Assembly (NCBI GenBank): GCA_041658985.1
Contig: JBAZZC010000003.1
Location: 10,540 to 74,539, forward strand
Direction: 5' to 3'
Length of the DNA stretch: 64,000 nucleotides
Source of the DNA: Minisyncoccota bacterium
Lineage (GTDB): Bacteria; Patescibacteriota; Minisyncoccia; Phycocordibacterales; DATDWN01
Shown: positions 2,608 to 59,369 of the stretch, one piece after another
Layout of the letters: each line of letters opens with the position of its first letter
Position numbering within the stretch: the first letter of the stretch is position 1
Program-made: the position numbers and the translations under genes
The notes under the pieces: model-generated
The model's input: the letters and a program-made list of their open reading frames with translations, nothing else
Told to the model about the DNA's origin: nothing
Databases searched by the model: none

Positions 2608-2698
2608 ATACCTATATTATATACTATTGTCTACCTCCGCCAGCACCAAAATTGAGTCTTGACACGAAAAGTTTTTTATGCTAGACTGTCCGTGACAT

Positions 2699-2834
2699 AT
2701 CCGCACACCAACTTTAGTATTGTGTCTTATCGTTGCGGGTATGGTAATTATACTATGTAGTGGTGGGGATAAAAACACTGAGAAGTATACTTATATTAGA
2801 CACGGAGCAACGATACTAAAGTTGGTGTGCGGAT
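2699..2834 (+). repeat. R135 inverted-repeat element, copy A
   Basis: Termini are ATCCGCACACCAACTTTAGTAT ... ATACTAAAGTTGGTGTGCGGAT. Inner modules TGTGTCTTA and CGTTGC are permuted between the arms. Confidence 0.8.
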
Positions 2835-3147
2835 GAATTTGAAAAAAAAGATTACATTAAAAGGTTTTGAGGTTTTTTGGTTCCAAAATATAAATCTCTA
2901 AGCAACTAAGCGTTTACGTTTACGAGTCTTTCTACGAGGACATTCTGGGTATTACTTTATGTAATATTCTGGAATTATCCTTTGTGAAAAACTTAGCTTT
3001 TGGTTTGATTATTGAAAGTGTTGCTTAGAGATTTATGTCTTGGAACTATCGTCCCGCCGACTGGCGGCTTTTTTGTTCCCAAAGATTATCTCTATTTACT
3101 AGTATAGATATGAAACAATTTTCTGCAAGAGTTTTTAGTATTAGAGC

Positions 3148-5925: not shown

Positions 5926-5932
5926 AATATAA

Positions 5933-6066
5933 ATCCGCACACTAATTTTGCCATCGTTCTATTTTTTAAAACAAAACCAATACCATTTTTATTTTCTTAC
6001 TCAACTTCACACAAGTTAATATATTTGATTTAGAACTAAAAATAATGGCAAATTTAGTGTGCGGAT
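5933..6066 (+). repeat. R135 inverted-repeat element, copy B
   Basis: ATCCGCACACTAATTTTGCCAT ... ATGGCAAATTTAGTGTGCGGAT. It ends 22 nt before the tsaE start codon. Confidence 0.8.
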
Positions 6067-6088
6067 AAAATTATGCTAATATGTCTTT

Positions 6089-6523: not shown

Positions 6524-6531
6524 TGGTATAA
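6522..6531 (+). promoter_or_regulatory. Extended -10 element (TGGTATAAT) placing a transcription start at the first nucleotides of R135 copy C
   Basis: TG at 6524-6525 and TATAAT at 6527-6532, about 7 nt upstream of the element start at 6535. Confidence 0.35.
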
Positions 6532-6534
6532 TTC

Positions 6535-6669
6535 ATCCGCACACTAAATTTGGCATTATCTCATAGTTGCTATACATGTGGTTATGTCAAATTTAATAAT
6601 CATGTTTAAATATAAGTATGCATCTAGAATTTGAGATAATAGCAACGATGCCAAAATTAGTGTGCGGAT
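6535..6669 (+). repeat. R135 inverted-repeat element, copy C
   Basis: ATCCGCACACTAAATTTGGCAT ... ATGCCAAAATTAGTGTGCGGAT. It ends 3 nt before the polA ATG. Confidence 0.8.
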
Positions 6670-6672
6670 AAA

Positions 6673-9024
6673 ATGGCCAAACCTAAAAGCAAAAAAACAC
6701 TGGTACTTCTTGATGTGCATGCTATTTTGCATCGTGCCTATCACGCCCTTCCGGAGTTTGAATCAAGTAAAGGTGAGCCGACGGGAGCTCTTTATGGGCT
6801 TTGCACCATGCTTATCAAGCTGGTAAAAGATTTTAATCCAGACTACATTATTGCTTGTTATGATTTGCCAGAGCCGACCTTACGACACGAAGCATATGGA
6901 GAATATAAGGCTGGTCGTAAAAAAGCTGACGATAATTTAGTAAAGCAGTTGGAGAGGTCAAAGGACGTTTTCAAGGCCATGAATGTGCCGATGTATTCGT
7001 CCCCAGGATTTGAGGCAGACGATATGCTTGGCACCATTGTTGAGAGCTTAAAAAATAACAAAGATATAGATATTGTTATTGCTTCTGGAGATATGGACAC
7101 CATGCAACTTATAAATGGTGATAGGGTGCGGGTTTACACTTTAAAGAAGGGAATAAAGGACACCATTATTTATAACGAGAAAGCAGTGATGGAAAGATGG
7201 GGCTTTGCTCCAAAACTTTTAACCGACTACAAGGGGTTGAGGGGCGACCCGTCGGATAACATAATTGGTATTGTGGGTATTGGGGAAAAAACAGCAGAAG
7301 AATTAATTCAAAAATTTGGTTCGATAGAAAATATATATAAAGAAATTAAAAATCCAAAATCTAAAATTCACAAAGAAGTTAGACCGAGGGTTTTAGAACT
7401 ACTTAAAACGGGAGAGGAAGAAGCTTTGTTTAGCAAAATGCTGGCTACCATTCGAATTGATGCACCGATTTATTTTACAATGCCCACAAAAATTTGGCGG
7501 GATGATATAGATATGAAAAAAGTTCAAGATTTGTTTTCACAATTTGAATTTAGAATGCTGGGGCAGAAATTTGCCGAGAGTCTATCTCTGGACATGCCAG
7601 AAAGAGCAGAAATAATGGCTAATCCTAAGGACGTATTTGAAGTTGGACTATTGCTCTGGGTAGTGGATTCAAACAAAACAAATTCTACGTTAGATGATAT
7701 TTTGTCGTATACCAGAAGCGACAATCTATCTGATGCTCGGAAGGTTTTGGAGAAGACAATAAAAGACCAAGACCTATCTTTTGTTGTAGAAAAAATAGAA
7801 AAGCCACTTATGCCAATTGTTGAGACAATGAAAGAGGTTGGTATAAAAATAGACACCGAAAGACTAAAAATTTTATCAAAGAAATACCACACAGAATTAT
7901 CGTCACTTGAGAAAAAAATATGGAAAATTGTCGGTGAGGAATTTAATATTAATTCACCAAAACAATTAGGTGAGATGCTTTTTGTTAAAATGGGGCTTAA
8001 AGTAAAAAACCAAAAGAAAACAGCTAGTGGTGGATTTTCTACAAAGGAATCAGAGTTGGAAAAATTAAAGGAAGAGTATCCGATTGCTGGATTAATCCTG
8101 GAGTATCGTAAATTAGCAAAACTTCTTGGCACTTATATAGATACCATGCCAACCCAAGTAGATAAAGGTGATAGGTTACATGCTAATTTTTTACAAGCTG
8201 GGACAACCACTGGCAGAATGGCAAGTCAGGACCCGAATTTGCAAAACATTCCAAATAAAACAGAGCTTGGTCGAGAAATTCGTAAATCGTTTATTGCCGA
8301 AAAAGGCTGGAAACTTATTTCGTTTGATTATTCCCAGATAGAGCTTCGTATTGCTGCTTTCTTGTCGGGGGATAAGAAACTAATTGAGATTTTTAAAACA
8401 GGCCAGGATGTCCACACTGCTGTGGCTTGCGAAGTTTTCGGAGTCAAACCAGAAGAGGTAACAAAGGAGATGAGAATAAAAGCAAAAACCATAAATTTTG
8501 GTGTGATGTATGGAATGGGTGTAACTGCTCTACAGAAAAATATTAAAACAAACAGAGAGGAGGCCCAGGAATTTTTGAATGGATATTTTAATAAATTTTC
8601 TGGACTAGCTGAATATCTAGAAAAAGTAAAAAGGGAAACGGCCCAAAAGGGCTTTACCTCGACATTTTTTGGTCGCAGGAGATATTTTCCTGAAATCAAT
8701 TCCAGACTACCTTTTATGAAGGCCCAAGCAGAAAGAATGGCAGTCAATGCGCCGATACAGGGGACAGAGGCAGACATAATCAAAATGGCTATGATAGAAA
8801 TTGATAGATTTATAAAAAGTAAGAATTTAGAAAAGAACGTCCAATTGCTTTTGCAGGTTCATGATGAGTTGGTATACGAAGCAAAAGAAAATATAGTTAA
8901 TTCAATAACTCCAGAAATAAAAGTAATAATGGAAAATATAATTGACCCAAAAAAAATACACGGAATAGTTTGTGTAGCGAATAGCTCCTTTGGAGACAAT
9001 TGGGCAGAAATGATATCAGTATAA
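6673..9024 (+). CDS. polA: DNA polymerase I (5'-3' exonuclease plus polymerase domains; 3'-5' exonuclease region reduced)
   Basis: N-terminal FEN-like domain, a helix-hairpin-helix, and polymerase motifs A (DYSQIELR), B (RIKAKTINFGVMYG) and C (QVHDELV). 783 aa. Confidence 0.9.
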   Translation: MAKPKSKKTLVLLDVHAILHRAYHALPEFESSKGEPTGALYGLCTMLIKLVKDFNPDYIIACYDLPEPTLRHEAYGEYKAGRKKADDNLVKQLERSKDVFKAMNVPMYSSPGFEADDMLGTIVESLKNNKDIDIVIASGDMDTMQLINGDRVRVYTLKKGIKDTIIYNEKAVMERWGFAPKLLTDYKGLRGDPSDNIIGIVGIGEKTAEELIQKFGSIENIYKEIKNPKSKIHKEVRPRVLELLKTGEEEALFSKMLATIRIDAPIYFTMPTKIWRDDIDMKKVQDLFSQFEFRMLGQKFAESLSLDMPERAEIMANPKDVFEVGLLLWVVDSNKTNSTLDDILSYTRSDNLSDARKVLEKTIKDQDLSFVVEKIEKPLMPIVETMKEVGIKIDTERLKILSKKYHTELSSLEKKIWKIVGEEFNINSPKQLGEMLFVKMGLKVKNQKKTASGGFSTKESELEKLKEEYPIAGLILEYRKLAKLLGTYIDTMPTQVDKGDRLHANFLQAGTTTGRMASQDPNLQNIPNKTELGREIRKSFIAEKGWKLISFDYSQIELRIAAFLSGDKKLIEIFKTGQDVHTAVACEVFGVKPEEVTKEMRIKAKTINFGVMYGMGVTALQKNIKTNREEAQEFLNGYFNKFSGLAEYLEKVKRETAQKGFTSTFFGRRRYFPEINSRLPFMKAQAERMAVNAPIQGTEADIIKMAMIEIDRFIKSKNLEKNVQLLLQVHDELVYEAKENIVNSITPEIKVIMENIIDPKKIHGIVCVANSSFGDNWAEMISV

Positions 9025-15972: not shown

Positions 15973-16011
15973 ATTTCTCTATTTTACAACAAAATTACCC
16001 AAAATGCTTTA

Positions 16012-16146
16012 CCCGCACACCAATTTTGGCATTGTCTCTATATTGCCACATCAATAATTATATAAAGAACGAGTCATTTTCATCTAAGTAAGGTTGTTTA
16101 ATTATCTTGAGAGACTGGGCAATGATGCCAAATTTGGTGTTCGGGT
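16012..16146 (+). repeat. R135 inverted-repeat element, copy D
   Basis: CCCGCACACCAATTTTGGCAT ... ATGCCAAATTTGGTGTTCGGGT. It ends exactly at the mutM stop codon. Confidence 0.8.
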
Positions 16147-17046
16147 TTATTTTTGGTGGACATTGCAAAAATGGCTAGTTCTACCCCCGATTATCTTTCT
16201 CATAATAATCCCTCGGCAGTCCTTTTTTAGACATTTTTCTTCTGTCCTTTGGTAAACCTTGTGGCTGTTTTGAAATCTACCTCTTTTTCCATCAACATTC
16301 CTGTAGTCTGACATAGAATCTCCTCCCATTTTGATTGACTTTGTAAGAATGGTTTTTATGGCTTTCCACATGGTTTTTAACTCTTTGTCTTTTAAGTTTG
16401 AAGTTTTTCGTTCCGGATGTATTTCTGCCGTCCACAAGATTTCGTCCGAATAAATATTACCAATTCCAGCGAGGATTGTTTGGTCCATTAAAACAGTTTT
16501 TATTTTTCCGTTGGGTTTTTTCAATAATTGTTTTTTTAATGTTTCTAGAGATAAGCCGGGGATTGATTCTGGTCCCAAGATTGTTAGGTCAATAACTTCG
16601 TTTCTTTTGCTGGTTTCAAAAAGAGTTACTTTGGCAAATTTGCGCATGTCGGAGAAAGCCAGGTGTTTCTTGTTTGAAAATGTAAATAAGAGATGAATAA
16701 ATTTATTGAATGGGTCAGAAAGAAGTTTTTCGTTACTTCTCCACTTTTTGTTTTCCCAGAGATATTTTCCATATAAAAAGTGTCCAGTCATTTTCATATG
16801 AGCCAAGATTGTTTTGTTGTTTGTCAGGTGAATAAGAATATTTTTTCCTCTCCGCTCGGTGTTTTTTACTTTTTCACCAACGACTTCCTCTCTAAAATGT
16901 TCGAAAAAACCCTTGTTTTTAATTACATCCTCTCGTTTATTTTTTGTTCGCAAAAAATAATCAGACCAAACATCTGTGATTTTGAGATTTTTAATGGTTC
17001 TGTTGAGACCATTAACTGTCGTTTGTACTTCGGGCAATTCAGGCAT
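16147..17046 (-). CDS. mutM: Formamidopyrimidine-DNA glycosylase (Fpg/MutM family)
   Basis: MPELPEV N-terminus (catalytic Pro2) and a C-terminal zinc finger with four Cys/His. Confidence 0.85.
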   Translation of the reverse strand: MPELPEVQTTVNGLNRTIKNLKITDVWSDYFLRTKNKREDVIKNKGFFEHFREEVVGEKVKNTERRGKNILIHLTNNKTILAHMKMTGHFLYGKYLWENKKWRSNEKLLSDPFNKFIHLLFTFSNKKHLAFSDMRKFAKVTLFETSKRNEVIDLTILGPESIPGLSLETLKKQLLKKPNGKIKTVLMDQTILAGIGNIYSDEILWTAEIHPERKTSNLKDKELKTMWKAIKTILTKSIKMGGDSMSDYRNVDGKRGRFQNSHKVYQRTEEKCLKKDCRGIIMRKIIGGRTSHFCNVHQK

Positions 17047-17093: not shown

Positions 17094-17681
17094 CTACGAT
17101 AGTAGTTTCATTGCCTTTTTTATTTTTTCCCCGGTACTTTTTTCACCCCCTGCTTTTTTCAGTGCTTCTCGCGCCTCACGTTCACCAAACCCCAGAGATT
17201 TTAGGGCCTCGAGAGCGTCAATGTCGTCGGAAAGGGAAGACCCATCACTTCCAACGTGTTCTAGCTTGTCTCGGAGTTCTACAACTATTTTCTCGGCATT
17301 TTTCTTGCCAACCCCGGAGACTTTTGTAAGATGTGCCGTGTCACCTGTAACTATTGCCTGGCGTAAGTTTTGGAGTGAAGCGATGTTTAAGATACCAAGG
17401 GCCGACTTTGGTCCAATGCCAGAAACGGTTAAGAGAAGCTCAAAAAAGTTAAGTTCCTCCCTCGTTCCAAATCCATATAAATCTAGGGCATTTTCTCTAA
17501 CAGCCAAATGTGTCCAAAATTCTGTCGTAGCTTGCGCCTTATATGATTTATTGCCTTCGCTTCGCTCCGGCGAGGACAGGGAGGCTGTATTTGTGTAGAT
17601 TTTATAACCAACACCAGAAACATCCAGTGTTATTGATTTTAAGTCTTGGTGTATTATCTTTCCTTTTAAATATCCAATCAT
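17094..17681 (-). CDS. ruvA: Holliday junction DNA helicase RuvA, carrying a 52-bp in-frame repeat insertion
   Basis: MIGYLKGKI start and HhH motifs (VSGIGPKSA). The loop sequence SPERSEGNKSYKAQATT is encoded by a segment shared with rlmI. Confidence 0.85.
   Translation of the reverse strand: MIGYLKGKIIHQDLKSITLDVSGVGYKIYTNTASLSSPERSEGNKSYKAQATTEFWTHLAVRENALDLYGFGTREELNFFELLLTVSGIGPKSALGILNIASLQNLRQAIVTGDTAHLTKVSGVGKKNAEKIVVELRDKLEHVGSDGSSLSDDIDALEALKSLGFGEREAREALKKAGGEKSTGEKIKKAMKLLS
17522..17573 (-). repeat. 52-bp GC-rich in-frame repeat (copy in ruvA)
   Basis: 50 of 52 bp identical to 34096-34147. Encodes SPERSEGNKSYKAQATT. Confidence 0.8.
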
Positions 17682-18137: not shown

Positions 18138-18558
18138 GTTAAACTTTGTTTATATGACCGGAAAGAGTAAAAGCGACAGAATTTTTAGTATTGATATATG
18201 GAGATATTTAGTAAACTTTTGGACACTGGTTATTTATATTATTGTTGTAGCTGACTTTTTTATGAGGAATAGTCTGGTGGAATTTCTTGGGCCAATCTGT
18301 GCTATCTACATTGCTCTTCTGGCTGTCTATACTACCCAAAAAGAGTTTGAACGATGGCATGATGAAAATATTGGCAAACATCCCGGGGAAGTATATGTAA
18401 TAGTTTGGACTGCCTTAATTGTTGTATTAATTGTTCTAGAAATTATTTACCAAGAGAGTTATGTATTACCAAGTGAAGCTTTTTCAACATATGTTGTAGT
18501 GATGGGTATATTAGCAATCTCAAGAAGGTCAAAGGCAAATTATTGTCGTATAAAATAA
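18136..18558 (+). CDS. Hypothetical membrane protein
   Basis: Three or four transmembrane helices; no recognisable family. Confidence 0.4.
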   Translation: MLNFVYMTGKSKSDRIFSIDIWRYLVNFWTLVIYIIVVADFFMRNSLVEFLGPICAIYIALLAVYTTQKEFERWHDENIGKHPGEVYVIVWTALIVVLIVLEIIYQESYVLPSEAFSTYVVVMGILAISRRSKANYCRIK

Positions 18559-18565
18559 AAACTTT

Positions 18566-18703
18566 GTGGTCAGGAATATTTTGCTCGTCGTCACTCGCAA
18601 AATTTCATGACCCTGACTCAGCTGTTTTTTCTGTTGAAAAAACATGCTTCCGTCCAGCACATAACAATAAAAATCTCCAGCAGTGGAGATTTTTATTGTT
18701 ATG
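18566..18703. repeat. tRNA-flanking hairpin repeat X1
   Basis: About 85% identical to 23259-23396. Contains a 22-bp-stem hairpin GCACATAACAATAAAAATCTCC..GGAGATTTTTATTGTTATGTGC abutting the tRNA 3' end. Confidence 0.7.
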
Positions 18704-18775
18704 TGCTCACGGCAGGAATCGAACCTGCATTTCTCCCTTCGCAGGGGAGTGTCTTATCCATTCAACGACGCGAGC
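18704..18775 (-). tRNA. tRNA-Arg (anticodon GCG as read; the exact anticodon needs checking)
   Basis: Acceptor GCTCGCG/CGTGAGC, anticodon stem CTCCC/GGGAG with loop CTGCGAA, T-arm GCAGGTTCGATTCCTGC. Confidence 0.65.
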
Positions 18776-18802
18776 TATAAAAAAAAGAGTAACACAAAGA
18801 TA

Positions 18803-19893: not shown

Positions 19894-20277
19894 ATGAAAT
19901 ATCTTGGTATTGATTATGGTTCAAAACGAATTGGCCTGGCGGTTTCTGATGAGGCTGGTAGTTTTGCTTTTCCCTTGAAAGTTTTAAGTAATTCAGAAAA
20001 TCTAATTAAAGAATTGGTTGAAATATGTAGGGAAAACAATGTGGAAGGGGTTGTGGTGGGGGAGTCAAAAGATTATCTTCAAAAAGACAATGAGATTATG
20101 GATGAAATTTTGCCATTTGTTGAGGATTTAAAAAATGTACTTAACCTGCCAATATATATGCACCCAGAATTTTTGACTTCCCAGGAGGCCGAGAGATTGC
20201 AGGGTAAAAACGATATGCATGATGCTAGTGCAGCGGCTCTTATTTTAAAAAGTTATTTGGATTCATCCGCACACTAA
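19894..20277 (+). CDS. ruvX: Putative pre-16S rRNA nuclease / Holliday junction resolvase-like protein YqgF (RuvX)
   Basis: MKYLGIDYGSKRIGLAVSD N-terminus typical of YqgF. Confidence 0.8.
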   Translation: MKYLGIDYGSKRIGLAVSDEAGSFAFPLKVLSNSENLIKELVEICRENNVEGVVVGESKDYLQKDNEIMDEILPFVEDLKNVLNLPIYMHPEFLTSQEAERLQGKNDMHDASAAALILKSYLDSSAH

Positions 20278-20395
20278 GTTTAGCATCGTTGCCATTTTTT
20301 GTGGTTTGGCTAACGTTCAATTTTTTGTAATATCCCGTGTATTATAGTTGTATGTGTTGTGGCAACAAAAATAATGCTAAACTTAGTGTGCGGAT
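20265..20395 (+). repeat. R135 inverted-repeat element, copy E
   Basis: ATCCGCACACTAAGTTTAGCAT ... ATGCTAAACTTAGTGTGCGGAT. The left arm overlaps the ruvX stop codon. Confidence 0.8.
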
Positions 20396-20419
20396 AAAAA
20401 AATAATAAAAATTAATTTT

Positions 20420-22916: not shown

Positions 22917-23252
22917 ATGAAAAATTTACTCCAAAAAATTAAATTCTTTTATACTAAGATAATAAAGAAAGAAGAAATATATAAGAGACGAGCAATAAGA
23001 CCTGCGCAAGACTGGTCTATTATTCTGATTATAAATATTGTTATTTTTTGTATATTACTTATTTTTGCTTCCTATTTTTATATACAAATTAGAAGAGATA
23101 AGTTGTTTGCTATAACCGAAGCGAACATAATAAATGAGACGAAAATAAATTCAGTGCTTCTAAAGAAAACAATAAACGATATTAATCTTCGTGAGGAATT
23201 AACCAACAACCTTAAAAATAGTGGAATAAGGTTTCCTGACCCATCTATGTAA
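22917..23252 (+). CDS. Small transmembrane hypothetical protein (possibly PilP-like)
   Basis: One transmembrane helix, translationally coupled to the preceding gene. Confidence 0.35.
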   Translation: MKNLLQKIKFFYTKIIKKEEIYKRRAIRPAQDWSIILIINIVIFCILLIFASYFYIQIRRDKLFAITEANIINETKINSVLLKKTINDINLREELTNNLKNSGIRFPDPSM

Positions 23253-23258
23253 ACTTAT

Positions 23259-23396
23259 GTGGTCAGGAATATTTTTGTTTCCGTCAAAACAAAAATTTCA
23301 CGACCCTGACTCGGCTGTTTTTTCTACTGAAAAAACATGCCTTCGTCTAGCACATAACAACAAAAATCTCCAGCAGTGGAGATTTTTGTTGTTATG
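23259..23396. repeat. tRNA-flanking hairpin repeat X2
   Basis: About 85% identical to 18566-18703. Same hairpin abutting the 3' end of tRNA-Arg(TCT). Confidence 0.7.
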
Positions 23397-23468
23397 TGCT
23401 CTCGGTTGGAATCGAACCAACATCAAAGCCTTAGAAGAGCTCTACTCTATCCATTGAGCTACGAGAGC
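23397..23468 (-). tRNA. tRNA-Arg (anticodon TCT)
   Basis: Acceptor GCTCTCG/CGAGAGC, anticodon loop CTTCTAA, T-arm GTTGGTTCGATTCCAAC. Confidence 0.75.
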
Positions 23469-23550
23469 GATAACGATAGGTTATCATAGAAAATCATTTA
23501 ATTCCACAAAATATGTGTTATTATTTTCTCTATAACACTCAAATAAATCT

Positions 23551-26410: not shown

Positions 26411-26517
26411 AAAATAAAAAGCATCCGAAAAATAATATCTTTTGAATAGTTATGTTTTATAAAATATTTTTATAGGTCAGTCGGTACTGGTTTATATTTA
26501 ATAGGTCTATTTTTCTT

Positions 26518-26539
26518 ATCATACGATATATCGTATGAT
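26518..26539. promoter_or_regulatory. Perfect 22-bp palindrome ATCATACGATATATCGTATGAT, 9 nt upstream of the HTH gene
   Basis: Self-complementary. Identical copy at 26937-26958. The core TACGATATATCGTA also occurs at 59159-59184. Confidence 0.6.
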
Positions 26540-26548
26540 ATAAATACT

Positions 26549-26935
26549 ATGCCTCACATATCAAAACAATTTTTAGAAAAGAAGAAGTTTCAAGATATCC
26601 ATAGCCAGTTATTTAAAGTTATTAATATGCTTGTGAGAGAAGGAAAGACAACGGCGATTTTAAATGAACTTTTTACAAAGACAGAAAAATTAATGCTTGC
26701 AAAAAGACTAGCTATTATATTTATGTTGGATCAAAAAGAATCATCTTATGCCATATCAAATATTCTTAAGGTAAGCCAATCAACTGTTGCACTAATGTCA
26801 CTTAAACAAGAAAATGGGAAATATTCGGATATAATAAAAGAAATGAGGAAGCAAAATAATTTTTGGATACAACTTCAGAAAATTATTCCACCACGTGTTG
26901 GCAGAAATCGTTTTAAGAATTTTCTTCAGTTCTAA
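26549..26935 (+). CDS. TrpR/YerC-YecD-like helix-turn-helix DNA-binding protein
   Basis: 128 aa with HTH-like region KRLAIIFML ... SYAISNILKVSQSTV. Exactly bracketed by identical palindromes. Confidence 0.45.
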   Translation: MPHISKQFLEKKKFQDIHSQLFKVINMLVREGKTTAILNELFTKTEKLMLAKRLAIIFMLDQKESSYAISNILKVSQSTVALMSLKQENGKYSDIIKEMRKQNNFWIQLQKIIPPRVGRNRFKNFLQF

Positions 26936-26936
26936 T

Positions 26937-26958
26937 ATCATACGATATATCGTATGAT
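26937..26958. promoter_or_regulatory. Second copy of the 22-bp perfect palindrome, 2 nt after the stop codon
   Basis: ATCATACGATATATCGTATGAT. Confidence 0.6.
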
Positions 26959-27073
26959 ATTATATGTATAAAGGAATAAACGACATGTCTATATTAAAGA
27001 GAAAAAAGTTGAAAATCAATGAATCTTTAAGTACTATTGGAATATCTCGGGTTTGAGAGTGTCGTCATTTAAA

Positions 27074-33726: not shown

Positions 33727-34647
33727 ATGATAGATAATATTTTAATCACTGAAAAATCAGTTGACTACGAACTGCTCGATAGTGGCGAGGGGGAAAAATT
33801 AGAGAGATATGGAAAGGTTGTTCTTTCTCGTCCAGACCCACAAGCCATCTGGTCAAAGTCATTACCTGAATCAGAATGGAAAAAAGCTGATGCCGTCTTC
33901 AGTCGTGTCGGTACAACAGGGAAATGGGAAGTAGTAGCTAGTAGTAAGCATCTAGCATCTAAAGGGGGGTTTTGGAACATTCAATTAGATAACTTAACTT
34001 TTCAGTTACAACTTTTACCTTCAAAACATATTGGAGTTTTTTCAGAACAGAGTGAACAGTGGAAATGGCTAGAGGAAAAAATTGTTTCCCGTATTTCGCC
34101 GGAGCGAAGCGAAGGCAACAAAACATATAAGGCGCAAGCTACGACAGTTCTGAATTTATTTGGTTACACGGGTGGTGCCAGTTTGGCTTGCGCCAGGGCT
34201 GGAGCAGAAGTTTGTCATGTAGATAGTTCAGAATTTGCTGTTGATTTGGCTCATACTAATATGAAACTTTCTGGCCTTTCGGATAAAAAAATAAGATTTA
34301 TTGTTGATGATGTCAGAAAATTTGTGGAAAGAGAAATAAAAAGAAAGAAAAAATACGACGTAATTATTTTAGACCCACCTATTTATGGTAAGGGCACGAA
34401 AAAAGAAGTGTGGAAGGTTGAAGATGACTTGTTGCCTTTTTTGCTTCACCTAAAAAATATTATTTCAGATAATCCATTAGCTATCGTTCTAAATGGTTAT
34501 GCTTCAAATTATTCTAGCATCACCTACGTTCAATTACTTGAAACTTTAAAATTAAAAGGCAAAATTACTCACGGTGAATTGGCTATAAAGGAATCATCAG
34601 CTGGTAGGCTCTTGCCTTGCGGCATATTTGCTCGTTGGGAACAGTAA
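33727..34647 (+). CDS. Class I SAM-dependent rRNA methyltransferase (RlmI/YccW-like), carrying a 52-bp in-frame repeat insertion
   Basis: PUA-like N-terminus, SAM-binding motif LNLFGYTGGASLA, and ILDPP. The ISPERSEGNKTYKAQATT segment is encoded by the repeat shared with ruvA. Confidence 0.75.
   Translation: MIDNILITEKSVDYELLDSGEGEKLERYGKVVLSRPDPQAIWSKSLPESEWKKADAVFSRVGTTGKWEVVASSKHLASKGGFWNIQLDNLTFQLQLLPSKHIGVFSEQSEQWKWLEEKIVSRISPERSEGNKTYKAQATTVLNLFGYTGGASLACARAGAEVCHVDSSEFAVDLAHTNMKLSGLSDKKIRFIVDDVRKFVEREIKRKKKYDVIILDPPIYGKGTKKEVWKVEDDLLPFLLHLKNIISDNPLAIVLNGYASNYSSITYVQLLETLKLKGKITHGELAIKESSAGRLLPCGIFARWEQ
34096..34147 (+). repeat. 52-bp GC-rich in-frame repeat (copy in the rlmI-like gene)
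   Basis: TCGCCGGAGCGAAGCGAAGGCAACAAAACATATAAGGCGCAAGCTACGACAG; 50 of 52 bp identical to the reverse complement of 17522-17573. Confidence 0.8.
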
Positions 34648-36032: not shown

Positions 36033-36067
36033 ATTGTGTTATAATGACAGTATTATTAAATTAAATT

Positions 36068-36203
36068 CATCCGCACACTAACATTAGTATTGTGTCTTAC
36101 GTTGCTCTACTGGGTATTAAACAGAGTAATGAAGGATAAAATGATGAAGTAAACAAATCAAGATTAGACACAATTGCAACGATACCAATGTTAGTGTGCG
36201 GAT
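36068..36203 (+). repeat. R135 inverted-repeat element, copy F
   Basis: ATCCGCACACTAACATTAGTAT ... ATACCAATGTTAGTGTGCGGAT. The interior is related to copy A. It ends 8 nt before the next ATG. Confidence 0.8.
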
Positions 36204-36211
36204 AAAATTTT

Positions 36212-43241: not shown

Positions 43242-44960
43242 ATGAAGGAAATCTTAGAAGAAGAGCTTAAAACGATATTGCGAAATATTGGGATACAGAA
43301 TCCTACGATTACTTTTGATGTGCCTATTCACGTTGAACTGGGGGACTATTCTACAAATGTAGCTATGGCTTATGCAAAACAACTTGGGACAAAACCGGTT
43401 GATTTAGCAGAAGAAATAAAGAAAAAACTCACAGAGAAGAGTATAGAGAATATTTTTAAAATAAATGTTATTGCCCCCGGGTTTTTAAACTTCTTTTTTA
43501 ATGAGAATTATTTTGGCGGTGTTGTGAAAGAGATAATTTTAAAAAAAAATAAATATGGAGAGAGCGACTCTCTTCTAGGGCAAAAAATAATGGTTGAGTT
43601 TACTGACCCGAACCCATTTAAAGAATTTCACATTGGACATTTAATGAGTAACAGCATAGGTGAATCAATTTCTCGAATTTTAGAATCACAAGGGGCCAAG
43701 GTTTTTCGAGCCAACTGGCAAGGGGATGTTGGAGTCCATATTGCTAAGGCGGTGTGGGGCATGTTCCATTCACCACTTTCAAATGATGACAAATCGTCTA
43801 TAGAAAAATCTGTCATCTATCTTGGGAGGTGTTACGCACTTGGTGCTTCACAGTATGAAGAAGATGAAAAGGTAAAAAAGGAAATACAAGAAATAAATAA
43901 TAAGATTTATGAAAAAAGTGACTTAGAGATTAATGAGAAGTATGAATGGGGAAGAAAAGTCAGTTTAGACTATTTTGAAATAATCTACAAAAAACTTGGA
44001 ACAAAATTCGATTACTATTTCTTTGAAAGCAAAGAGGGGGTCCTTGGTAAAAAAATAGTAGAAGAATATTTAGAAAAAGGTATTTTTGAAAAAAGCGACG
44101 GGGCAGTTGTTTTTAAGGGTGAAAAATATGGCTTACACACAAGGGTTTTTATCAATTCAAATGATATACCAACATATGAAGCCAAAGAGTTAGGCCTGAA
44201 CCGAGAGAAATTTATTGTTGAACCAAAGCTTGATCAGTCAGTCATAATTACCGGAAATGAGATAAATGAGTATTTTAAGGTTTTACTGCAGGTTATTTCT
44301 CTGATATTTCCGGAGGTTGGTCAAAAAACAAAACACATTTCTCATGGGATGCTCCGATTACCCGAGGGCAAAATGTCTTCACGAACCGGCAATGTTATTA
44401 CAGCCGAATCACTAATATTAGAAGTTCAACAGAAGACTCTTGAAAAAATGAAAGACAGGAGAATGAGTGAAAAAACACAACAAGAAATTTCTGAGACCAT
44501 AGCTATTGGTGCCCTGAAATATTCCATCCTAAAACAAACGACTGGAAAGGACATAATTTTTGATTTTGATAAGTCGGTTTCATTTGAAGGGGATTCTGGT
44601 CCATATTTACAATATGCAACTGTGCGGGCAAATTCTATTCTAAAAAAATCCGCCTCTTCGGCGGACCAGCCGATGAGGCTGGGCGAAATACCAGAAAATT
44701 GGAAGACCACAAATTTAGAGAGAATTCTTGAGAGATTTCCGTCTGTGATGGAGAGGGCGGGGACAGAGTATGCGCCAAGTCACATTGCCACCTACCTTAT
44801 TGAACTGTCAGGAGAATTCAATTCGTTTTATGCTTCCCACAAAATAATTAATGAGACCGACCCAACATCTTCCTATCGATTAGCCTTAACTCAAGCTTTT
44901 GTTTATATAATGACTTCAGGACTTAATCTTCTGGCGATCAAAATTCCGGAACAAATGTAG
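43242..44960 (+). CDS. argS: Arginine--tRNA ligase
   Basis: HIGH motif in FTDPNPFKEFHIGH, a KMSSR-type motif, and a DALR anticodon-binding domain. Confidence 0.9.
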   Translation: MKEILEEELKTILRNIGIQNPTITFDVPIHVELGDYSTNVAMAYAKQLGTKPVDLAEEIKKKLTEKSIENIFKINVIAPGFLNFFFNENYFGGVVKEIILKKNKYGESDSLLGQKIMVEFTDPNPFKEFHIGHLMSNSIGESISRILESQGAKVFRANWQGDVGVHIAKAVWGMFHSPLSNDDKSSIEKSVIYLGRCYALGASQYEEDEKVKKEIQEINNKIYEKSDLEINEKYEWGRKVSLDYFEIIYKKLGTKFDYYFFESKEGVLGKKIVEEYLEKGIFEKSDGAVVFKGEKYGLHTRVFINSNDIPTYEAKELGLNREKFIVEPKLDQSVIITGNEINEYFKVLLQVISLIFPEVGQKTKHISHGMLRLPEGKMSSRTGNVITAESLILEVQQKTLEKMKDRRMSEKTQQEISETIAIGALKYSILKQTTGKDIIFDFDKSVSFEGDSGPYLQYATVRANSILKKSASSADQPMRLGEIPENWKTTNLERILERFPSVMERAGTEYAPSHIATYLIELSGEFNSFYASHKIINETDPTSSYRLALTQAFVYIMTSGLNLLAIKIPEQM

Positions 44961-44999
44961 TTATTTACAAAAGTATATATTTTAGTTAATATTTAAGTA

Positions 45000-45178
45000 T
45001 AAGCAGTAAAGAGACCAATCACCTCTATGGCTTTGGGAAGAAAGCAGAAATGCAAATAGAACCCAACGGGTGGCCCGTTATAGCCGTAAAGAGAAGTAAG
45101 CAAGGTGGTACCACGAGAAACTCGTCCTTGCATAGCAAGTGTTTGCTGTGTAGGGACGGGTTTTTTATTACAAAAAAT
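45000..45178 (+). promoter_or_regulatory. T-box riboswitch leader with an AUC (Ile) specifier upstream of ileS
   Basis: T-box sequence AAGGTGGTACCACGAG (45102-45117). A 16-bp terminator stem plus GGTTTTTT follows at 45122-45168. The specifier loop ACCAATCAC carries AUC followed by a purine, in the AGAG/CTCT stem at 45010-45030. Confidence 0.55.
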
Positions 45179-52661: not shown

Positions 52662-52793
52662 ATCCGAACACTAACTTTGGCATCGTTGCACATCTCCACA
52701 CGTAGATGTAAACGATAGTCTAGATGTAGATTCATATTTTGTATTAATACTCACTTAGCAACAAGGAGATAATGCCAAAGTTAGTGTGCGGAT
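52662..52793 (+). repeat. R135 inverted-repeat element, copy G
   Basis: ATCCGAACACTAACTTTGGCAT ... ATGCCAAAGTTAGTGTGCGGAT. It begins 1 nt after the glyQS stop codon. Confidence 0.8.
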
Positions 52794-57585: not shown

Positions 57586-57740
57586 CTCTGGTCTTTTTGT
57601 CCGATTTCAGCGTTGGAATTTCAAAAATTCTCGTCACCGTACGTTTAGTACGGCTCCTCGCATTTTTTCATTCCGCCTTGAACTCGAACAAAAATCCTCA
57701 GAGTTTCATTTCTCGACCTATCAAAACTTGCGTGGTCGTA

Positions 57741-57795
57741 TCTTTTTTGGAAACACAAACCCAGACGCTGGTCTGGGTTTGTGTTTCCAAAAAAG
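57741..57795. terminator. Bidirectional rho-independent terminator between convergent rpsR and efp
   Basis: 18-bp stem GGAAACACAAACCCAGAC gctg GTCTGGGTTTGTGTTTCC, flanked by TTTTTT on one side and AAAAAA on the other. Confidence 0.8.
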
Positions 57796-57821
57796 ATACG
57801 ACGAGCTAAAGTTTTGAAAAA

Positions 57822-59103: not shown

Positions 59104-59158
59104 AAAAATAATAATATACGAAAATTATGCGAATGATACGAATGAATACGAATGGTCA

Positions 59159-59184
59159 ATTTACTACGATATATCGTAGTAAAT
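59159..59184. promoter_or_regulatory. 26-bp perfect palindrome ATTTACTACGATATATCGTAGTAAAT (same core as the palindromes flanking the HTH gene)
   Basis: Shares the 14-bp core TACGATATATCGTA with 26518-26539 and 26937-26958. Preceded by GAATGATAC-type tandem repeats at 59130-59156. Confidence 0.5.
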
Positions 59185-59369
59185 CATAAAAACCAGAACG
59201 AAGCACAATCTCGTTGAGTCATGTCTTGAGAAAGGCCTTTCGCAGGAGTTTAGAAAATAAAGGAAGTATTCTGACTATTATTTTCTTGAACGACGAGAAG
59301 TTCGCTAGCTCACCAGAGCTAGATAGATTGCCTTTTGAGAGATATGACGAGAAAGAGATTGTGCGAATG

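Follow-up and report, generated by a model that had tools for sequence, protein, structure and literature searches.

The closest described counterparts of R135, a repeat family found in a 64,000-nucleotide (nt) stretch of the Minisyncoccota bacterium contig JBAZZC010000003.1 (positions 10,540 to 74,539 of the forward strand; hereafter the window), are the bacterial MITEs (miniature inverted-repeat transposable elements), such as the Correia elements of Neisseria and the ERIC/IRU repeats. Like R135, these are noncoding elements of about 130 nt with terminal inverted repeats and short target duplications; they occupy intergenic sites in many diverged copies, are often co-transcribed and can fold into long hairpins. 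R135 differs in that the inner part of its terminal inverted repeat and two further modules covary copy by copy, the modules being crossed rather than nested, and in that no transposase-bearing parent was found, its sole coding relative carrying a GIY-YIG nuclease. For integron attC sites, single-strand folding and asymmetric bulged bases matter for recognition. These sites resemble R135 in their imperfect inverted repeats, their similar length and the conservation of structure rather than sequence, but their pairings are nested, and they lie in one orientation at cassette ends in an array beside an integrase, whereas R135 copies lie dispersed, in either orientation, between housekeeping genes such as ruvB, polA, fpg and one for a tRNA synthetase. 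No integron integrase was seen among the genes scanned, and none was looked for beyond those. The palindrome-associated IS200/IS605 elements owe their mobility to folded single-stranded DNA, the kind of mechanism proposed below for R135. Unlike R135, they carry sub-terminal hairpins at both ends, lack a terminal inverted repeat and a target duplication, and use a guide that pairs with the cleavage site; no internal R135 position matches the flanking 4-mer or its complement above the control. In REPINs, the folded doublet is the replicating unit and compensatory changes keep the hairpin (Bertels and Rainey 2011, PMC3116915). Like them, R135 has inverted ends that are conserved, a spacer whose length but not sequence is conserved, and compensatory changes (PMC3116915), but its ends are not palindromic REP units, many of its copies are flanked by 4-bp target duplications, and no RAYT is associated with it. 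R135 is MITE-like in its ends, duplications and polymorphism and REPIN-like in its logic, with an unusual and well-supported crossed covariation. We found no described Patescibacteria MITE, no GIY-YIG element flanked by terminal inverted repeats, and no mention of R135 itself in the literature searched.

On balance, we lean towards regarding R135 as a noncoding, MITE-like foldback family of mobile elements specific to Patescibacteria, in which folded DNA would be under selection and a GIY-YIG element would be the likely partner. The window holds seven copies, labelled A to G, of 131–136 nt each, all of them intergenic, at a density of about one per 9 kb. A covariance model built from the R135 copies gives exactly seven matches in the window and scores each copy 40–55 bits higher in one orientation, so that the interior has polarity. 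An oriented copy reads 5'-T-X-Y-centre-X'-Y'-T'-3'. The terminal inverted repeat T is 21–22 nt long (family form ATCCGCACACYAANNTTRGYAT); its outer 11 bp (CCGCACACYAA) are near-invariant across the family, and its inner half covaries with the other arm. There is a weak YTAA-NN-TTAR symmetry inside T, and read directly it shows no covariation within one arm. Module X (5–9 nt) follows T after 0–1 nt, and Y (5–8 nt, consensus CGTTGC) follows X after 0–5 nt (median 2 nt). On the other side, X' and Y' are separated by 0–3 nt, with a linker of zero or overlapping modules in about 28 of 75 copies, and Y' abuts T' with 0–1 nt between them. X' and Y' stand in the same left-to-right order as X and Y, so the X:X' and Y:Y' pairings cross. 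The centre is about 62 nt long across the family, a tight length that may reflect constraint or just few insertions and deletions; it has no family-wide conserved sequence or fold, and the sole feature shared between centres, a CATCTARA word, is confined to one sub-lineage. In copy A (2699–2834, plus strand), left T occupies 2699–2720 (ATCCGCACACCAACTTTAGTAT), X 2721–2729 (TGTGTCTTA), Y 2731–2736 (CGTTGC), the centre 2737–2795, X' 2796–2803 (TTAGACAC), and Y' 2807–2812 (GCAACG), which directly adjoins T' at 2813–2834.

An initial annotation of copy A, made from the letters of the window, had claimed that the two arms of each copy match each other rather than a family consensus. Among the seven window copies, 91.8% of cells are paired, compared to 83.8 ± 1.0% in shuffles (none of 500 reaches 91.8%), and 11 pairs are changed on both sides, compared to 4.8 (1 of 500 shuffles); sliding the partner by 1–3 columns gives 32–42% paired. 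The arm variants quoted in support are correct (CCAACTTTAGTAT for the two arms of A, CTAAGTTTAGCAT for those of E, and CTAACATT(A/G)GTAT in F), and the quoted modules are found as well (TGTGTCTTA/CGTTGC in A and F, TATCTCA/(A)GTTGC in C, and TGTCTCT/ATTGCC in D). The same annotation placed the modules in a crossed order in every copy. The crossing holds, but "every" is slightly generous, since copies B and E are shifted in register and their X modules (TATTTTT) are of low complexity. Aligning more copies gave a stronger signal. At least 119 metagenome stretches with the two-arm pattern, together with paired hits in genome records, yielded 146 distinct full-size copies. Across 141 distinct rows, the T helix is 97.7% paired (85.7% in shuffles), with double changes in 19 of its 22 pairs and 380 double-changed cells against 103 ± 7 in shuffles. 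The variable T positions show most of the possible base pairs, and arm identity at each of them is 0.81–0.98 (0.91–0.98 without position 11), where 0.35–0.85 would be expected. Both arms carry the same variant at T positions −1, 8 and 11–19, and pairing ends sharply beyond −1 and 19.

The crossed modules behave in the same way. Both are at least 5 nt long in 53% of the 146 copies, a figure that falls to 3% when arms from different copies are combined. Module covariation was also tested on 46 copies aligned by sequence only. In these, pairing reaches 98% in helix T. The figures are 75% for helix X, where 5 of 7 pairs have changes on both sides, and 60% (in one register) for helix Y, where this is true of 4 of 5 pairs. 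A single X pair is CG in 12 of these copies, GC in 11 and UA in 11. The geometry of the modules is constant across the family. The covariation between arms and between modules is real, and that of the arms is far beyond chance.

Close relatives reveal how fast pairing is recovered. In 52 related copy pairs, the variable T positions differ on both arms in 72 cases, against an expected 24, and on one arm in 36; of the 72 double differences, 60 are fully compensatory. Two paralogues that are 96.6% identical differ by one clean double change in T and by three neighboring substitutions, clustered in X', that make X' a better match for X. The copies at the site of copy E, in the window and in a relative whose PolA is 80% identical (L244; numbers of this form denote comparison loci and relatives), have identical flanks and outer T, three concerted double changes in inner T, and centres that cannot be aligned. 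The corresponding pair at the site of copy A shows two single changes, both to G-T wobbles. Pairing is regained quickly, whether through strong selection, templated correction or the two together.

It could be that arm identity is kept by mutation instead of selection, through intramolecular templated repair or gene conversion in a transient hairpin (quasi-palindrome correction), or through conversion between copies by way of T; the excess of doubles over singles and the changes in the 96.6% paralogues speak for this, and the E-site copies fit the replacement of one copy by another family member. As a full explanation we consider it rather unlikely. A simple hairpin acting as template yields complementarity that is nested, with no crossing of modules. 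Such templating would also remove the abrupt stop of pairing at position 19 and the constant, non-complementary register that follows T, and it leaves the invariant outer T, the conserved Y sequence and the constant geometry unexplained. Templated repair could act alongside selection rather than instead of it.

R135 is also mobile. The flanking 4 bp, with the element start placed at −1, are identical in 51 of 138 copies where 8 are expected, and 35 more copies match at three of the four positions; among the target-duplication lengths and element boundaries tried, only 4 bp at −1/+1 stands out. The common duplications are TTTA/TAAA, TATG/CATA and TTGA, and they often include a neighboring stop or start codon. 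The combination TTTA...TAAA, which would extend the stem, is not among the flank pairs listed, and this favors a duplication over a longer repeat. Perfect duplications are seen, for example, in the window: copy B (5933–6066, minus strand, in the opposite X/Y orientation), which lies upstream of the extended −10 box of tsaE, is flanked by TAAA (5930–5933 and 6066–6069), and copy D (16011–16146, plus) by TTTA (16008–16011 and 16146–16149), with the fpg stop codon inside the right TTTA duplicate. Presence and absence vary between related genomes. Copy A has an orthologous copy in L244, and its site is empty in L238, L240 and L243. For copy C (6535–6669, plus), between tsaE and polA with a start codon 3 nt past the element, the orthologous site lacks the element in L241, whose PolA is 96% identical. 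The D site is empty in L238 and L240, and the site of copy E (20265–20395, minus; the ruvX frame terminates at a TAA within its T) is empty in L240. The genomes with empty D and E sites have about 82% PolA identity to the window, and the one that shares copies A and E has 80%. Within single contigs, paralogues up to 96.6% identical have unrelated flanks.

Some relatives of R135 carry a gene. In these elements, T arms about 298 nt apart enclose an 88-codon open reading frame (ORF) that starts 4 nt after T and has its TAG stop inside T'; this is the only gene of the element. They occur at L142 1113–1410, at L220 1570–1867, and at 1477–1774 in each of L248, L256 and L264. There are four distinct elements, with the same architecture in all four independent genomic contexts examined. 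Their arms are complementary at 20–21 of 21 positions and covary (CTCTC or CCCTC on both), although the right arm is coding. The 88-residue protein matches PF01541 (E = 2.5e-16), and the closest solved proteins are of UPF0213 (1zg2 and 1ywl). It is a bare GIY-YIG catalytic domain of the UPF0213/YhbQ/Slx1 branch, without a DNA-binding domain; according to a review, Slx1, YhbQ and YazA are members of its family (PMC7017083). The 782 homologues of about 88 residues are from Paceibacterota or Parcubacteria where named. In two loci (L155 and L226), a tRNA 3' end, an R135 copy and a GIY-YIG gene follow directly beside one another. No T-bounded transposase was seen in about 270 loci, drawn from collections that were not searched exhaustively, and the only T-bounded gene found in them is the GIY-YIG nuclease. 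The 298-nt nuclease element is a likely parent or partner of R135, the link being associative.

Free-standing GIY-YIG homing endonuclease genes, such as the seg genes of phage T4, offer a comparison for these elements. The 298-nt relatives resemble them in being intergenic, in having a GIY-YIG gene and nothing else, and in their polymorphic positions; they differ in the bare 88-residue domain, in the 21-bp inverted repeats around the gene, and in the abundance of ORF-less derivatives at unrelated sites. The ORF-bearing elements have the flanks TTCAT/ATAAA and an upstream −10-like hexamer, as found in 23 ORF-less copies. Copies with that flank pair, among them those around 6530–6674, 20260–20400 and 36064–36208 of the window, often have a TATAAT-like hexamer before them and a start codon within 15 nt after them. 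The TTCAT side is usually upstream relative to transcription (12 versus 3), and the X/Y orientation is random with respect to it (13 versus 10). One observation on the nuclease genes stands by itself: an identical protein (P0145) occurs with two different right flanks (L256 versus L260), which could be a real recombinant or an assembly chimera. An R135 copy or a single T arm directly adjoins tRNA genes at L155 3380–3800, L226 2225–2645 and L061 1822.

As single-stranded DNA, all seven window copies surpass shuffles in folding by a wide margin (z-scores of −5.8 to −9.9). The minimum free energy fold combines T with Y:Y' and a bulged X in copies A, C, D and G, and T with X:X' and a bulged Y' in copy F; each of the two helices contributes about −4.5 kcal/mol. 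Given linkers of 0–3 nt beside the closing stem, it is geometrically unlikely that X:X' and Y:Y' form jointly, and they are more likely to be two alternative, mutually exclusive bulged hairpins than a pseudoknot.

These properties suggest how R135 might work. The outer 11 bp of T would presumably be the part recognized by a protein, whereas inner T, X and Y are free in sequence, bound only to complement their partners. New copies enter short AT-rich intergenic spacers, many with a 4-bp target duplication (TTTA/TAAA, TATG/CATA or similar), and this duplication often copies a neighboring stop or start codon, leaving the gene intact. Each strand would have two alternative folds, the T stem plus a helix of 6–8 bp past a one-sided bulge of about 9 nt. 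In a simple bulged hairpin, the two strands would carry the bulge on opposite sides; with the modules permuted, both strands may share one shape, as a two-fold symmetric cruciform or an intermediate formed from either strand would require. On this model, the selected species would be folded DNA, a single-strand hairpin or a two-fold symmetric cruciform, needed for copying or moving the element. The partner or parent acting in trans would be the 298-nt element, whose 88-residue UPF0213/YhbQ/Slx1-type GIY-YIG protein belongs to a family of structure-selective nucleases and might act on the fold.

Several points weigh against this reading. The nonidentical flanks TTCA/TAAA, seen in about 17% of copies and in three of the four distinct GIY-YIG elements, are not explained by target duplication, and the empty site in L241 cannot be exactly reconstructed from the filled one. 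Copies common to genomes with 80% PolA identity keep a perfect outer T, which could indicate a host-level function in place instead of selection during transposition. No X/Y complementarity was found in the ORF-bearing 298-nt elements, so X and Y are not needed by every T-bounded element, and no GIY-YIG gene is present in about 81 kb of the window's own contig. Nucleases are not known to perform transposition alone, nor GIY-YIG enzymes to produce 4-nt staggers. Lastly, a subtype with a GC-TTCG-GC hairpin, described below, hints at RNA-level structure in part of the family. A bolder version of the DNA reading would make R135 and the 298-nt elements a new mobile class, in which an Slx1/YhbQ-type nuclease is the sole protein and recognizes folded DNA, and the permuted X/Y order serves a symmetric cruciform. 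Recognition of folded DNA would explain why arms and modules have to covary although their sequence is free. We put this forward tentatively and think it improbable as a whole.

The annotation had proposed selection on a folded nucleic acid or hairpin-templated repair. Maintained intra-strand pairing stands; the RNA version of the fold finds no support in strand asymmetry. R135 might work in transcripts as a structured RNA whose pairing is selected there, acting as an RNase III stem, a 5' or 3' stabilizer, a translational occluder, or a panhandle that limits nuclease expression. Most copies are located within operons or leaders and have to be transcribed, with copy C 3 nt from the polA start and copy A in the leader of a candidate noncoding RNA (ncRNA). 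In one flank class, and also in the ORF-bearing elements, whose T and T' bracket the whole ORF, a −10-like hexamer lies upstream of T at a constant distance; one type of interior holds a cUUCGg-like hairpin; and orthologous copies are kept in place. Against these observations, mismatches of G-U type number 27 on the top strand and 25 on the bottom, with no strand asymmetry, and the X/Y orientation relative to flanking co-directional genes and their transcription is 42:40. Copies occur between tandem, convergent and divergent genes. In Rfam 15, no family matches R135 at the gathering threshold (only tRNAs pass) or at E up to 10, the hits being sub-threshold generic miRNA-precursor hairpins, and the centre has no conserved fold. 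The absence of strand bias, the random orientation and the lack of an Rfam match disfavor a strand-specific RNA; a symmetric double-stranded RNA role may be compatible with the strand-symmetry data. We judge a role as structured RNA to be distinctly unlikely.

It is very unlikely that R135 is an ordinary MITE moved by a DDE transposase that selects the same sequence at both ends, with no folding involved. Terminal inverted repeats, 4-bp duplications, small size, many copies and presence/absence polymorphism would all fit. However, this one genome has among its seven copies at least five forms of inner T and X, each form being matched between the arms. The variable positions show most possible base pairs, a range that one protein would not select together, and the crossed X and Y covary even though they differ between copies. 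The only gene bounded by T in the loci scanned is, moreover, the nuclease gene and not a transposase gene. The annotation's argument that transposase recognition of the ends is insufficient is borne out, as it explains neither the covariation per copy nor the crossed modules.

Its suggestion of a pseudoknot fared less well. That the two helices cross and covary is correct, and these are the features that would favor X:X' and Y:Y' forming together as a true pseudoknot capped by the T stem; their simultaneous formation is hard to reconcile with the short linkers and with each helix being the minimum free energy choice in different copies. With X 0–1 nt from T, Y' 0–1 nt from T', and X'–Y' linkers that are often zero or overlapping, two helices of 6–8 bp cannot, on geometric grounds, both close next to a 21-bp stem, and some short family members have just one of the two helices plus a bulge. 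We therefore give the pseudoknot hardly any credence. Readings of T as a DnaA box, LexA-like operator, DNA-uptake sequence or terminator, judged from the sequence, are dismissed, as they fit neither the two-arm architecture nor the copy distribution nor the flanks.

A link to RAYT or IS200 elements was considered by way of a Y1 transposase gene beside the syntenic region of L244 and rejected: that gene has its own, unrelated flanking hairpins, and no homologue is present in the window. It lies at 1059–1860, between murJ and lepA, in this relative only, encodes an IS200-like protein of 212 residues with the HUH motif, and has the hairpin CTAACAC-TCC-GTGTTAG on both sides, which is found nowhere else in the loci.

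The genomes of Patescibacteria are tiny and densely packed, and few mobile elements have been described from them; R135 sits exactly at gene boundaries and is common to lineages that lie as far apart as Saccharibacteria and Paceibacterota. Its hundreds of diverged copies and its two crossed helices make it an unusually clean natural data set of compensatory changes in DNA, and through it a connection of a structure-selective GIY-YIG nuclease with a foldback repeat can be tested. If this link is true, it would be a new way for DNA to move. If it is false, R135 is nonetheless a repeat not yet catalogued; it affects leaders and operon junctions, and annotation pipelines should mask it. The family may also account for fragmented assemblies and for altered gene starts and ends in Patescibacteria genomes.

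The family ranges over Saccharibacteria, Paceibacterota, Zambryski-, Kaiser- and Taylorbacteria and other Parcubacteria; when viral contigs were searched with the two-arm pattern, no R135 match appeared. The first pattern used on genomes was too loose (118 loci, most of them chance matches outside Patescibacteria), and only paired-arm loci were used. Among the loose matches, the Streptomyces loci (L003, L016, L029, L039, L041, L062, L070, L088, L101, L110 and L117) all share CTGTGCATCCGCACACCAATCTTTACATC, a site that is T-like beyond the bases forced by the pattern, yet probably unrelated to R135. Shorter family members of 63–71 nt consist of a T stem with two small hairpins, or with one hairpin and an 8-nt CGCTTTGC bulge, and mini-hairpins of 27–28 nt consist of outer T alone. 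Short forms were located at L001 6923–6987 and 7086–7113, L019 3414–3476 and 4702–4728, L026 1571–1634, L132 2262–2332, L198 8552–8618, and L213 3641–3707. A second type of interior (type II) occurs within the same T arms in L119, L126, L139, L141, L145, L166, L179, L180, L194, L199 and L203, with TGCCTCTTATGAA after one arm, GC-TTCG-GC..AAATTA before the other, and no X/Y modules. Its small hairpin resembles a cUUCGg tetraloop, and this interior is sense to the flanking genes in five of six tandem cases.

The window, with 37% G+C, belongs to a Zambryskibacteria-like Patescibacteria chromosome and is a housekeeping region; its genes include ruvB, a type II/IV secretion ATPase gene, tsaE, polA, fpg, ruvA, ruvX and tRNA genes; the relatives of its PolA are named Zambryskibacteria or Paceibacterota. 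The two R135 copies not yet placed are F (36069–36203, plus), with flanks TTCAT/ATAAA and a SIMPL-family gene 8 nt downstream, and G (52662–52793, minus), which begins right after the stop codon of a class II tRNA synthetase and has flanks TAAA/TAAG. Copy A separates the promoter from the body of the conserved candidate ncRNA (2659–3075). This RNA would be about 190 nt long, with a 17-bp closing stem (2890–2906 with 3020–3036) and a terminator near 3053–3075; its promoter is strong (TTGACA at 2659–2664, TGC-TAGACT at 2679–2687). It is highly conserved in L238, L240, L243, L244 and L245 and has no Rfam match. In relatives without R135 at a given short intergenic site, that same site can hold another repeat: an unrelated GC-rich foldback palindrome (CATCCCGTTAGAGAC...GTCTCTAACGGGAT) at L240 14963–15060, and an unrelated AT-rich repeat of the AATTTTCAAT type at L238 9850–10000.

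Several further repeats and signals were seen in the window. A weak T-box leader match (47 bits, compared to a gathering score of 93) at 44951–45132 overlaps the start, at 45050, of an ORF of 1184 residues. A direct repeat of 223 nt (18558–18780 and 23251–23473, 79% identity) has a tRNA-Arg gene in each copy, and each copy also holds a near-perfect palindrome of 52 nt (18656–18707 and 23349–23400). The arms of a 52-nt inverted repeat (17522–17573 and 34096–34147), 96% complementary, are 16.5 kb apart. A perfect 32-bp hairpin with a 4-nt loop lies at 57735–57802, and a perfect, ATCATACGATATATCGTATGAT-like palindrome of operator-like appearance is present in three copies (26515–26545, 26934–26964 and 59158–59188).

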